64,000 nucleotides of DNA from Escherichia coli (GTDB lineage: Bacteria; Pseudomonadota; Gammaproteobacteria; Enterobacterales; Enterobacteriaceae), in the NCBI RefSeq assembly GCF_013122565.1, contig NZ_CP053258.1, one strand, 5' to 3'. A model generated the notes under the pieces. The model worked only from the letters and a program-made list of their open reading frames with translations, had not been told where the DNA came from and did not search any database. Both the position numbers and the translations under genes were made by a program. This document shows, in pieces, positions 46,491 through 57,706 of this stretch (positions are counted from its first letter, which is position 1; each line of letters starts with the position of its first letter).

Positions 46491-46702
46491 GAGTTCCCCG
46501 CGCCAGCGGGGATAAACCGGCGATTATAGCGGACTTTCAAGAGAACAGTCTGAGTTCCCCGCGCCAGCGGGGATAAACCGTGGAAAATCACCGACAATAT
46601 TCGACATGGAGAGAGTTCCCCGCGCCAGCGAGGATAAACCGTTATCGGTCATCAACTATAGCGCGTATTTACTAAGTTCCCCGTTCCAACACGAATAATC
46701 CG
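46491..46702 (+). CRISPR. Type I-E CRISPR mini-array (CRISPR2-like): 3 intact repeats, 1 degenerate terminal repeat, 3 spacers of 32 bp
   Basis: Repeats gagttccccgcgccagcggggataaaccg at 46491, 46552 and 46613 (third has one mismatch). Degenerate repeat 46674..46702. Phase confirmed by the antisense artefact ORF 46379..46597. Confidence 0.95.
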
Positions 46703-52658: not shown

Positions 52659-52811
52659 ATGCTGACAAAATATGCCCTTGTGGCAATCATCGTACTGTGT
52701 TGTACAGTACTGGGATTCACGCTGATGGTAGGCGACTCGTTGTGTGAGTTGAGTATCAGAGAACGTGGTATGGAGTTTAAGGCAGTTCTCGCTTACGAAT
52801 CGAAGAAGTAG
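52659..52811 (+). CDS. Hok/Gef-family type I toxin (50 aa; below ORF-track cutoff)
   Basis: Translates to [50 protein letters not shown]. One TM helix and a conserved C-terminal SLCE...AYES.K block as in plasmid R1 Hok (from memory). SD agggagg 7 nt upstream. An overlapping upstream 34-codon ORF (52561..52665) ends 7 nt into hok, like a mok reading frame. Confidence 0.8.
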
Positions 52812-53048: not shown

Positions 53049-54392
53049 GTGACTTTCTTTGATTTCTGGGGAAAAACCCGACGTGGCGAGAAAGAAGGGG
53101 GCGACGGCTATCACCTTCTTTGCTGGCATTCGCTGGATGTGGCCGCGATGGGCTATTTAATGGTTAAAAGAAATTGCTTCGGGCTGGCTGACTATTTTCG
53201 TCAATTAGGGATTTCTGACAAGGAACAGGCAGCTCAATTTTTCGCCTGGTTGCTGTGCTGGCACGATATTGGAAAATTTGCCCGCTCTTTTCAACAACTT
53301 TACCTGCCCCCTGAATTCAAGATTCAGGAAGGTGCCAGAAAAAATTACGAAAAAATCTCTCATTCAACGCTGGGCTACTGGTTGTGGAATCATTATTTAA
53401 GTGAATGTCAGGAGTTACTTCCTTCATCTTCGCTCTCTCCGCGCAAACTTAGGCGAGTGATAGAAATGTGGATGCCCGTGACGACAGGGCATCATGGTCG
53501 GCCCCCTGATCGTATGGATGAATTGGATAATTTTCTGCCTGAAGACAAAGCTGCAGCACGAGATTTTCTCCTTGAAATCAAACCACTGTTTCCGCTCATA
53601 GAGATCCCCGCATTCTGGGATGATGATGAGGGCATTGAACTTATAAAACACCTTTCCTGGTATATCTCTGCAACCGTCGTGCTCGCAGACTGGACGGGTT
53701 CGTCAACGCGATTTTTTCCACGCGTCGCACACCCAATGGATATTAAAGGTTACTGGCAGAAAACTTTAGTTCAGGCTCAAAATGCCTTAACCGTCTTTCC
53801 TCTAAAAGCAAAAGTCGCGCCTTTCACCGGAATTAATACGCTGTTTCCTTTTATTGAGAATCCGACACCGTTACAGCAAAAGGTGCTGGATCTGGATATC
53901 AGCCAGCCAGGGCCACAGTTATTTATTCTGGAAGATGTGACTGGCGCAGGTAAAACGGAAGCGGCGCTTATCCTGGCGCACAGGTTGATGGCTGCGGGTA
54001 AAGCGCAGGGTTTGTTTTTTGGCCTGCCAACAATGGCAACGGCCAATGCCATGTATGATCGGCTCGTCAAAACCTGGCTTTCTTTCTATTCGCCAGAATC
54101 TCGCCCCAGCCTGGTGCTGGCACACAGTGCCCGCACATTAATGGACCGCTTTAATGAATCACTCTGGTCCGGTGATTTAATCGGGTCAGAAGAACCGGAT
54201 GAACAAGCTTTCAGCCAGGGTTGTGCGGCCTGGTTTGCCGACAGTAACAAGAAGGCGTTGCTGGCTGAAATTGGCGTCGGCACCCTGGATCAGGCGATGA
54301 TGGCAGTGATGCCGTTTAAACATAATAATCTGCGGCTTCTGGGGCTGAGTAACAAAATCGTGTTCCCCGCGCCAGCGGGGATAAACCGATGA
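53049..54392 (+). pseudogene. cas3: Truncated cas3 (type I-E; HD nuclease domain and start of helicase domain only), fused to the CRISPR array
   Basis: 447-aa ORF with a GTG start. HD motif WHDIGKF and Walker A TGAGKTEAA. Collinear with the N-terminal half of K-12 Cas3 (888 aa, from memory). The frame runs through CRISPR repeat 1 (...NKIV|FPAPAGINR) and stops in spacer 1. Confidence 0.88.
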
Positions 54393-56647
54393 ATATTTGC
54401 GAATATTCGGCAGAAAGCGGGTGTTCCCCGCGCCAGCGGGGATAAACCGAGGTTGCGGCACAAATTGAGGTTGTCGCAAATGTGTTCCCCGCGCCAGCGG
54501 GGATAAACCGCCGACGCAGCAGCGGCAGCAGCGGCAGCAGCGGTGTTCCCCGCGCCAGCGGGGATAAACCGTGGATCAGTGCCGCGTTCTCTCTCCGTGT
54601 AATGTGTTCCCCGCGCCAGCGGGGATAAACCGATCGAGACGGGTACGCGTAAAGCCGAGCTGGCGTGTTCCCCGCGCCAGCGGGGATAAACCGCGATCGG
54701 TTAATTCTTCTACCTGCCTTTGCAGGTGTTCCCCGCGCCAGCGGGGATAAACCGCCCGCAATGCATTCGGGCAGTTCCTTGCCGGGGTGTTCCCCGCGCC
54801 AGCGGGGATAAACCGGAGATTGAGCCAGACGCCCGCCAGGTGTTACTGTGTTCCCCGCGCCAGCGGGGATAAACCGGAAGTAACACACCCAACCCAGGTT
54901 GCGCCAGAGTGTTCCCCGCGCCAGCGGGGATAAACCGCCTGTTTGAGCAGGCGCGAATGAACCGGACCAGTGTTCCCCGCGCCAGCGGGGATAAACCGTC
55001 AGGTAAGCCAGTGTTAGGGGCAATATAGCAGTGTTCCCCGCGCCAGCGGGGATAAACCGTCATCGGCTCGTTATTTGTAGCCAGCACTACGGTGTTCCCC
55101 GCGCCAGCGGGGATAAACCGCTTTATCAGATGGTAAAGGTGAATCAATATGAGTGTTCCCCGCGCCAGCGGGGATAAACCGATACCCCAGCGTTTCGTTA
55201 TATGACGGAAGATGTGTTCCCCGCGCCAGCGGGGATAAACCGTGCAACCAGGACGGCAGGACGCATCGCCAGATGTGTTCCCCGCGCCAGCGGGGATAAA
55301 CCGCACGTTATTATCCGATATTCACCGATAAGCGTGTGTTCCCCGCGCCAGCGGGGATAAACCGTCTGGGCGTAAACAGTCGGATAAATCGCGGGTGTGT
55401 TCCCCGCGCCAGCGGGGATAAACCGGCGGCGTGTGGGGTAACAATCAGGGAGAGAAAGTGTTCCCCGCGCCAGCGGGGATAAACCGGATAAATACAGTAT
55501 ATTCCCGCGCTCTGCTGGCGTGTTCCCCGCGCCAGCGGGGATAAACCGTAGATTTTGTCCGGCTCAGGTGCGCCGATGGTGTGTTCCCCGCGCCAGCGGG
55601 GATAAACCGATCGAGTACAACAAAAAATATACTGAGTGAGTGTGTTCCCCGCGCCAGCGGGGATAAACCGCTGTTTGCTCCTGCTGCTCATTTAGTGATT
55701 TAGTGTTCCCCGCGCCAGCGGGGATAAACCGCCTGTTCTTTTTTAGTCAACTTAACCATGCTCGTGTTCCCCGCGCCAGCGGGGATAAACCGTCTTTTTC
55801 GAGACTTGCAGCAACGCTCTGAAAGTGTTCCCCGCGCCAGCGGGGATAAACCGATCGAGTAGTTTTGAGGGTTGGTGAATTCAGGGTGTTCCCCGCGCCA
55901 GCGGGGATAAACCGCTTAATAAATGGACTTAAGCGCCCAGTATTGGGTGTTCCCCGCGCCAGCGGGGATAAACCGGGGAGGGCGAGCCGCCGTAGGTGCG
56001 GTGAGGGGTGTTCCCCGCGCCAGCGGGGATAAACCGACGCAGAAACTGGTTGAAATAGTTTACGGTGAGTGTTCCCCGCGCCAGCGGGGATAAACCGGCA
56101 GTAAATTATTTGACCTCGTTGATAATCCCGTGTTCCCCGCGCCAGCGGGGATAAACCGGTGGCGGTGTGATTGTGGGACTTATTGCCATCGTGTTCCCCG
56201 CGCCAGCGGGGATAAACCGGGCCTTTTCAGCAGATTAACCGCCGCGATTGCGTGTTCCCCGCGCCAGCGGGGATAAACCGAGAGATTTATATTCTTTCAA
56301 ACCGGATTATATCGTGTTCCCCGCGCCAGCGGGGATAAACCGCTTCAAGAATTTTTAAACGCTGGCTTCAAAATGTGTTCCCCGCGCCAGCGGGGATAAA
56401 CCGTCCCACGCGTGCCAGATGGCGCGTTTGATGGCGTGTTCCCCGCGCCAGCGGGGATAAACCGATGATAACGGCAAAGGGTACGCTACGTACAACGTGT
56501 TCCCCGCGCCAGCGGGGTTAAACTGTGATCCAGTGAGTACCGATCCGGGAACAACCGGTGTTCCTCGCATCAGCGGGGATAAACCGGGTGCACTGGATGC
56601 GATGATGGATATCACTTGGCGTTCCCCCGCCCCTGCGGTAGAACTCC
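54360..56647 (+). CRISPR. Type I-E CRISPR array: 37 repeat-spacer units plus a highly degenerate terminal repeat; no leader, no adjacent cas operon
   Basis: 29-bp repeat gtgttccccgcgccagcggggataaaccg with period 61. Spacers are 32 bp except one of 33 bp (55487..55519). Repeat phase verified against the antisense artefact ORFs ([10 protein letters not shown] / VYPRWRGEH / GLSPLARGT). Degenerate repeats at 56497, 56558 and 56619 mark the leader-distal end, next to iap. Confidence 0.97.
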
Positions 56648-56668: not shown

Positions 56669-57706
56669 TCAAGACGCCTTCGCCAACTCCTTCACCAGAG
56701 GTAGCATTATCCGCATAACGTCACGGCAGCGACGTTCTATTCTTCCAGGAAGTGCCTTATCAATATGCTGTTGATTATCCAGTCTTACGTCATGCCAGCT
56801 ATTTCCCGCAGGGAATGCGGCTGTTTTTGCGCGTTGCTGATAACCATCCTTATTCCCAAGATTCCAGTTAGTCGCTTCCACCGAAAGTACAGCAATGCCC
56901 GCTTTGTCGAATATTTCGGCGTCATTACAACATCCAGTGCCTTTCGGATAATTTTTATTCAAACCCGGATTGGTCGTTGCGGCAATTCCATGACTACGCG
57001 CAATTGCCAGCGCCCTGTCGCGCGTTAATTTCCTTACTGCTTCAGGGGTTTTTACACCGCTGTTGAAATACAATTTATCGCCAACAATTAAGTTATCGAG
57101 ATTAATCACCAGCAGCGTATTTTTCTTTTCGGTGTCACTCATCCGCTTGAGTAAATTCTCAGCGCCTAATTTTCCTTCCTCTTCGCCGCTGGTCGCCACA
57201 AATCGAATACCATACTCGGTAGGCGTATTTTTCAGGCGTTCTGCCAGTTCCAGCATGACACCTAAACCTGCGGCGTTATCATCTATTCCTTGTAACGTCA
57301 GTCCGCCGAGATTGGCATCGGCGTCAGCATCGCTCAGCGGGGCGTAAGTATCCAGATGCGCCATAATGATGATCTGCTGCGGCGCTTTGCCTTCATGAGC
57401 GGCAATCACCGTACTTCCCGTCACGTTATGCCAGCTCTTACGATTATCGCGGGCGGTATAAATATATCGACTATTAAATGTCCGAATATCACTGCGATAA
57501 CCCATTTGCTGAAACTGTTGGCGAATATAATCGGCAGATAACATTTCTGCAGGAGTTCCGGTCATGCGTCCCGGAAAGAAAGTAGCAATATGTCGTGCCT
57601 GGGTATTAGCAAAATCGCCAGGTTTAGGTGACGAGGCGTGTACGGGGAGAATAAAGCATACGCCGAGCGCCAGGGCAGCGGTACGGTGGCGCAATGCGGA
57701 AAACAT
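56669..57706 (-). CDS. iap: Alkaline phosphatase isozyme conversion aminopeptidase Iap
   Basis: 345 aa, signal peptide, M28-type peptidase. Confidence 0.93.
   Translation of the reverse strand: MFSALRHRTAALALGVCFILPVHASSPKPGDFANTQARHIATFFPGRMTGTPAEMLSADYIRQQFQQMGYRSDIRTFNSRYIYTARDNRKSWHNVTGSTVIAAHEGKAPQQIIIMAHLDTYAPLSDADADANLGGLTLQGIDDNAAGLGVMLELAERLKNTPTEYGIRFVATSGEEEGKLGAENLLKRMSDTEKKNTLLVINLDNLIVGDKLYFNSGVKTPEAVRKLTRDRALAIARSHGIAATTNPGLNKNYPKGTGCCNDAEIFDKAGIAVLSVEATNWNLGNKDGYQQRAKTAAFPAGNSWHDVRLDNQQHIDKALPGRIERRCRDVMRIMLPLVKELAKAS

Follow-up and report, generated by a model that had tools for sequence, protein, structure and literature searches.

Spacer 3 of an orphaned type I-E CRISPR array in Escherichia coli is, with good probability, a genuine spacer that was taken up while the locus was complete, probably from a tract of a mobile element, and that is now inert and neutral, being neither self-targeting nor functionally promiscuous. 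It is located in a window of 64,000 nucleotides (64 kb), which is the whole stretch of DNA that was analyzed. As what is probably an ordinary fossil, i.e., a guide relic in a dead array, the spacer has little significance in itself. The context of the junction at which the array adjoins a truncated cas3 gene is of more consequence.

Spacer 3 and its array

Spacer 3 (positions 54511 to 54542, + strand) has a length of 32 nt and the sequence CCGACGCAGCAGCGGCAGCAGCGGCAGCAGCG. After its CCGAC start it consists of three exact 9-nt units, (GCAGCAGCG)x3, and its G + C content is 0.78. It is flanked by perfect 29-nt type I-E repeats of the sequence GTGTTCCCCGCGCCAGCGGGGATAAACCG, both on the + strand, at 54482 to 54510 on the 5′ side and at 54543 to 54571 on the 3′ side. 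Counted from the cas3 side, it is number 3 of the 36 spacers of a CRISPR-I (CRISPR2.1-type) array without leader (54360 to 56586, + strand), which comprises 37 repeats, of which 35 are perfect and the final two are degenerate. The 61-nt period is in register across all 37 repeats, and the length of spacer 3 is that of a type I-E spacer (32 nt, or 33 nt with the PAM-derived G); 34 of the 36 spacers measure 32 nt and two measure 33 nt.

The initial annotation had described this segment as a low-complexity spacer made of GCA/GCG trinucleotide repeats, which was confirmed by the sequence and by a DUST-type score of 1.72. The remaining 35 spacers of the array score at most 0.59, and none of the 159 unique E. 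coli spacers gathered for comparison scores higher than spacer 3. Within the non-CRISPR part of the window, around 1e-4 of the 32-mers reach its score. Spacer 3 is therefore a real, yet modest complexity outlier, corresponding roughly to a 0.4–1.6% event if spacers are drawn from E. coli-like DNA.

The orientation of the array could be determined from two other spacers. For spacer 22 (55671 to 55702, + strand) and spacer 24 (55793 to 55824, + strand), perfect protospacers next to an ATG PAM were found in E. coli STEC384; both belong to one prophage gene for exodeoxyribonuclease VIII (recE-like) and are located on one strand with 830 bp between them. Since both carry the ATG PAM on their 5′ side, the + strand is the crRNA-sense strand. 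The last 8 nt of the repeat at 54482 to 54510, ATAAACCG, would become the crRNA 5′ handle, and this handle together with the ATG PAMs identifies the CCGAC end of spacer 3 as the PAM-proximal seed end. The former leader side of the array is the cas3 side. Only two of the 36 spacers were found in other arrays among 5,426 complete E. coli genomes, and a search with all 36 spacers, concatenated, against 50,697 phage records gave no match at E ≤ 0.05. A second, minimal type I-E array at the CRISPR-II position (46491 to 46641, + strand) contains three repeats of the GAGTTCCCCGCGCCAGCGGGGATAAACCG type and two spacers.

The gene order around the array is cysJ-cysI-cysH-hok-cas3′-array-iap-cysD-cysN-cysC, with iap (56669 to 57706, - strand) as the conserved neighbor at the leader-distal end. 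The identity of the window to the best of the 5,426 complete E. coli genomes is 98.0% for cysJIH-cas3 and 99.0–99.2% for the 24 kb from 20000 to 44000. Upstream of the array, a 5′ fragment of cas3 (E1 variant; 53049 to 54359, + strand) encodes Cas3 residues 8–453 of 899, and its truncated ORF reads on into the array as far as a stop codon at 54390 to 54392 within spacer 1. At the deletion junction (54359 to 54360, + strand), cas3 nt ~1353 (of 2,700) directly precedes base 1, a G, of the first repeat. Relative to an intact locus (L001), ~7.3 kb are missing at this point, comprising the remainder of cas3, casA-cas2 and the leader. In L001, cas3-casA-casB-cas7e-cas5e-cas6e-cas1e-cas2e are followed by a leader of 96 bp, the array and iap.

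A tblastn search of the window with the eight Cas proteins of this intact relative returned Cas3 residues 8–453 as its sole match, and neither CasA-E, Cas1 and Cas2 nor a leader could be found in the 64 kb. The initial annotation is therefore correct in that Cascade is not encoded in this stretch. The components of a functional type I-E locus (cas3, casABCDE, cas1, cas2 and an AT-rich leader) are not assembled at this array, and no second cas operon that serves I-E repeats is known from E. coli. The array is orphaned.

Matches of spacer 3 and its probable source

BLAST of spacer 3 with short flanks against the E. coli genomes gave an empty result with the low-complexity filter on, because DUST masks the 27-nt core of the spacer. 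As a workaround, the first 30 nt of spacer 3, the score of which is under the threshold by estimate, were used as query, and this query gave matches. Partial matches (E ≤ 10) were found in only 28 of the 5,426 complete E. coli genomes, all of them in prophage or plasmid genes, namely those for a prophage tail-fibre N-terminal domain, a tape-measure-like prophage protein, a P22-type DNA transfer (ejection) protein, a DUF2514 protein and plasmid TraD (traD). Neither core genes nor common accessory genes of E. coli were among the matches to the 30-nt query in these genomes, and no copy of spacer 3 was present in another array. The three top-ranked kinds among the matches in the 28 genomes were scored ungapped over the full 32 nt, which resulted in 26/32, 26/32 and no alignment within nine mismatches. 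The PAMs at the two 26/32 matches are CGA and CAG, neither of which is usable.

As a foreign protospacer, a match of at least about 29/32 was sought that lies in a phage or plasmid infecting the host group and has AAG, ATG, AGG or GAG as its PAM. No such source protospacer was detected in the phage, plasmid, IMG/VR, GTDB-representative or JGI metagenome collections, where the scans of the last three used exact or IUPAC patterns, which miss two to four scattered mismatches outside the degenerate positions. The 50,697 phage and 72,556 plasmid records contain thousands of short matches to the repeated unit, and the number of matching bases in a single aligned piece does not exceed 26 (26/27 and 26/28). 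The more plausible candidates among them, an Enterobacter kobei plasmid, an IncP Aeromonas plasmid and the Salmonella phage Arash, have five to nine mismatches and no PAM.

In IMG/VR, the pattern of spacer 3 with an N at every sixth position and the wobble-degenerate pattern of the Q/R frame both gave zero viral matches. The wobble-degenerate pattern of the S/G frame gave eight, the best of which is 30/32 with an AAT PAM on a contig of 60% G + C, and the GCR (Ala) pattern gave two. These viral matches, like those of the patterns made of the 21- and 24-nt prefixes, are high-GC chance matches. In the JGI metagenomes, the every-sixth-N pattern had no match, and the 24-nt prefix had four. One of these is 31/32 with a CTG PAM and is located on a 72% G + C contig within an ORF that reads ...LALLPLLPLLRRQ... 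and looks argC-like in its translation. In 100,044 species-representative genomes, the every-sixth-N pattern again gave no match, and a degenerate Asp-Ala9 (GCR) pattern detected 23 loci.

Among the matches that bear a PAM, the best is L118, another of the four metagenome matches of the 24-nt prefix: it reaches 28/32 next to an AAG PAM and stems from an environmental contig of 1.2 kb and 59% G + C. The combination of a PAM with at least 29 matching bases is absent from all matches found. The sequence of spacer 3 was also not found in a full-text search across 8 million papers.

The E. coli partial matches all fall in Ala/Gln-rich tracts of phage structural or conjugation proteins. By analogy, the source of spacer 3 was probably such an Ala/Gln-rich tract of a mobile element which is yet to be sequenced or has since diverged. 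For the history of the spacer we infer the following course. Cas1-Cas2 would have acquired it while the locus was still whole, probably from a mobile element in which a PAM adjoined a short coding tract of low complexity. The likeliest reading on the spacer strand would be an alanine run, ...A-D-A9, with Q-Q-R or S-S-G repeats as alternatives. At least two further spacers (1 and 2) would then have been gained, as acquisition is polarized to the leader end and these two are consequently younger than spacer 3. Subsequently, the 3′ half of cas3, casA-cas2 and the leader would have been deleted, which would have left the array with no leader promoter, no processing of transcripts by Cas6e, no Cascade and half of Cas3. 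These losses imply that spacer 3 is now without activity, and it would since have persisted as neutral, inert DNA.

A different donor, i.e., a broad-host-range plasmid or high-GC bacterial DNA instead of an enterobacterial phage or plasmid, is unlikely but has some points in its favor. Spacer 3 itself has 78% G + C, all matches of at least 29/32 lie in DNA of 60–72% G + C, and partial matches occur on the IncP Aeromonas plasmid and the Enterobacter plasmid. However, these matches have five to six mismatches or lack a PAM and lie in genes of unrelated housekeeping or unknown function, which is what chance predicts for a low-complexity query, and similar Ala-run tracts are present in the tail-fibre, tape-measure and ejection genes of enterobacterial phages.

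Self-targeting, promiscuity and expansion in place

Due to its composition, spacer 3 had initially been regarded as a candidate self-targeting spacer that hits host genes, and tolerance of a self-match after the loss of Cascade had been proposed as the reason for its retention. Self-targeting by spacer 3 is unsupported. In the 64-kb window, which was the part of the host genome examined for self-matches, there is no second match to the spacer with up to three mismatches, and the matches in the 28 genomes described above are confined to mobile-element genes. Of the two outcomes that the initial annotation had named as speaking against its reading, one was thus obtained, namely the absence of a near-perfect host match as far as tested; the other, a clear single foreign protospacer, was not. 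The retention of the spacer needs no special reason, because the array can neither acquire spacers nor express crRNAs in the normal way and because two spacers were gained after spacer 3 while the system still worked; there is no need to invoke tolerance.

It is still conceivable, albeit highly improbable, that a poly-Ala, poly-Ser or poly-Gln gene of the host is hit by spacer 3 and that the cell tolerates this hit in the absence of the cas genes, or that the hit even favored the loss of Cascade. The deletion of the cas genes at this locus is real, and degenerate CRISPR-Cas loci are reportedly associated with self-targeting spacers; like those, spacer 3 sits in a locus stripped of effector genes. 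Unlike them, it has no self-match in the window or in the sample of the E. coli pan-genome, where the three scored kinds of match do not exceed 26/32 and have no usable PAM. Even the degenerate D/A9 pattern detected no Enterobacterales among the 100,044 species representatives. Furthermore, spacers 1 and 2 were gained after spacer 3, so that the lineage persisted with its adaptation module still working, and this speaks against strong autoimmunity.

The designation as a promiscuous spacer has to be divided into two parts. Regarding bioinformatic collisions it is correct: exact copies of the 27-nt core are present in at least 50 unrelated IMG/VR viral contigs, and matches of 30/32 in unrelated high-GC DNA (L075, L096 and L111) and of 31/32 were found in unrelated genomes. 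Regarding function it is probably not, since the seed is non-repetitive and no match of at least 29/32 has an interference PAM. Type I-E interference reportedly depends on a PAM and on a perfect seed (positions 1–5 and 7–8). In spacer 3 these positions read CCGAC-CA and belong to the non-repetitive end. Most of the checked loci that match the core diverge at positions 1–5, and those with an intact seed fail at the PAM or at the 3′ end. Judged from the sequence, spacer 3 is probably not functionally promiscuous, because its PAM-proximal seed is formed by the non-repetitive CCGAC end.

That a single crRNA would, with Cascade present, interfere with or prime on many elements with GCA/GCG tracts has accordingly a very low probability. 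The exact occurrence of the core in so many viral contigs and in many genomes, as well as the tolerance of type I-E priming, which reportedly accepts many mismatches, would favor such a guide. Against it stand the unique CCGAC-CA end at the seed, the failure of the core matches at positions 1–5, the PAM or the 3′ end, the restriction of the AAG PAM to one environmental match of 28/32, and the lack of any near-match from an enterobacterial phage or plasmid.

Low-complexity spacers yield spurious protospacer matches, as was described in a published benchmark (PMC13326750). Spacer 3 resembles these spacers in its high DUST score, its empty result in the filtered BLAST and its near-perfect matches in unrelated organisms without the filter. 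It differs from them in being a bona fide spacer of a regular array and not a mistaken tandem repeat. Being both DUST-masked and matched near-perfectly in unrelated genomes, it is a case for caution: with the filter on, nothing is found, and with the filter off, a 31/32 "target" appears in an arginine-biosynthesis gene of an unrelated bacterium. Low-complexity spacers of this type should be left out of host-virus linking.

An expansion of a 3- or 9-nt unit in place within an ordinary spacer can be practically dismissed: 9-nt tandem units are prone to slippage, but spacer 3 has exactly 32 nt in an intact 61-nt register, where expansion would shift the length by 3 or 9, and no related array with spacer 3 at one or two units was present in the 5,426 genomes.

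Junctions between cas3 and base 1 of a repeat

The locus was compared with the degenerate and orphan type I-E CRISPR-I (CRISPR2.1) loci of E. coli and Shigella with the cas-E1 variant, on the basis of the consulted parts of Almendros et al. (2014; PMC3903273). As described there, the array is located at the same position (cysH-hok-cas3 ... iap) and has the same 29-nt repeat, hok/sok is present as in the E1 loci, and the leader is gone along with the cas genes. A partial cas3 remnant, as found here, is reported in the same parts for S. flexneri 301. The present array is unusually long compared to the loci covered there, with 36 spacers. Moreover, the deletions are mostly assigned to IS elements in these parts of the paper, whereas no IS is present here and cas3 directly adjoins base 1 of the repeat.

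A 5′ part of cas3 near iap is retained in 117 of the 5,426 E. coli genomes. Fifteen of these 117 loci were read, which together with the window resulted in nine distinct cas3 breakpoints. The breakpoints of these nine independent alleles are located at nt 1196, ~1353, 1470, 1486, 1555, 1569, 2046, 2168 and 2459 of cas3. In all nine, cas3 is directly joined to base 1 of a repeat, within a 1-nt ambiguity at three of them, i.e., at nt 1470 (depending on the cas3 variant) and, owing to a shared G, at nt 2046 and at nt 2168. It is vanishingly unlikely that nine right ends fall on one position of a 61-nt unit by chance.

Several routes to these junctions were considered and rejected. An IS-mediated deletion does not fit, since no IS is present in the annotation tables for the nine alleles, and neither does homology-driven recombination, since the intact cas3 sequence past each breakpoint is unlike the repeat. 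A cas3-derived spacer that recombined with its own protospacer would give such a junction, but is unlikely, as the trinucleotides on the 5′ side of the nine putative 32-mers (TCT, ATA, GAA, GCT, CCA, CGT, ATA, ATG and GAG) are not spacer-like: AAG occurs in none of the nine and interference PAMs in two.

At the leader-repeat junction, Cas1-Cas2 links the non-PAM end of a prespacer to the repeat, and this bond is the same as the one seen here between an arbitrary 3′ end and the 5′ G of a repeat. We tentatively suggest that the CRISPR integrase itself might have made the orphan array, in that a chromosomal 3′ end of cas3 was captured and integrated at a half-site, a single event that would remove the cas operon together with the leader. 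Such a half-site integration deletion would resemble the adjacent deletions made by transposases, and it would keep the older spacers 3′ of the joined repeat as fossils. A cas3-to-repeat-base-1 junction is not described in the consulted parts of PMC3903273 or in the results of literature text searches.

If this proposal is true, the loss of CRISPR immunity would be self-inflicted and recurrent, and integrase chemistry would provide a concrete, testable route for the repeated loss of type I-E systems in E. coli. Two additional alleles end within cas2 or cas1 and show 2–5 nt of microhomology at their junctions, like ordinary illegitimate recombination.

Spacer content and matches of the orphaned array

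The orphaned type I-E array (54360-56586, + strand) is long, with 36 spacers, and nearly private: across 5,426 complete E. coli genomes, spacers 14 and 29 are the only ones that recur in an array. No match of any of its spacers to 50,697 phage records was found at E<=0.05.

The low-complexity GCA/GCG spacer 3 (54511-54542) matches 31/32 positions in the metagenome contig L117 (ERZ869936 NODE-43, 1421-1444). This match is located within an argC-like housekeeping ORF of a bacterium with a G + C content of 72% and is a clear case of a spurious 'protospacer' resulting from a low-complexity spacer.

Spacer 22 (55671-55702) and spacer 24 (55793-55824) both have their match in a single exodeoxyribonuclease VIII (recE-like) gene, which lies in a prophage of E. 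coli STEC384. The two matches are located on the same strand with 830 bp between them, each with an ATG PAM, a layout that is expected for primed adaptation.

Three of the 36 spacers, namely 5, 21 and 25 (starting at 54633, 55610 and 55854), begin with ATCGAG, and two of these share the start ATCGAGTA. The ATCGAG start was absent from all other spacers compared (159 from other arrays), and the chance expectation of such triples is ~4e-4 by our own estimate.

Deletion junctions between cas3 and the array

In nine independent E. coli deletion alleles, including that of the window (54359/54360), cas3 runs directly into base 1 of a CRISPR repeat. The other loci with such junctions are L002-L004, L112, L114, L120-L122 and L124-L127 from complete E. 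coli genomes. The breakpoints in cas3 were located at nt 1196, ~1353, 1470, 1486, 1555, 1569, 2046, 2168 and 2459, and the placement at repeat base 1 has a 1-nt ambiguity in three of the alleles. At the junctions of the nine alleles, an IS, homology and a spacer-type PAM are all absent. This pattern hints at a Cas1-Cas2-type joining at the leader-repeat junction.

A second class of cas deletions has its right ends within cas2 or cas1, with cas3 nt 2037 joined to cas2 in L119 and L123 and cas3 nt 1585 joined to cas1 in L128. These deletions carry a microhomology of 2-5 nt and retain the leader.

Neighbouring features

A Hok/Gef-family toxin ORF of 50 aa (52659-52811) is located between cysH and cas3, in which the window resembles E1-type CRISPR-I loci. 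Furthermore, a second, minimal type I-E array with three repeats and two spacers (46491-46641) occupies the CRISPR-II position upstream of cysJ. Its repeats are of the GAGTTCCCC... variant, the third carrying a G-to-A change.
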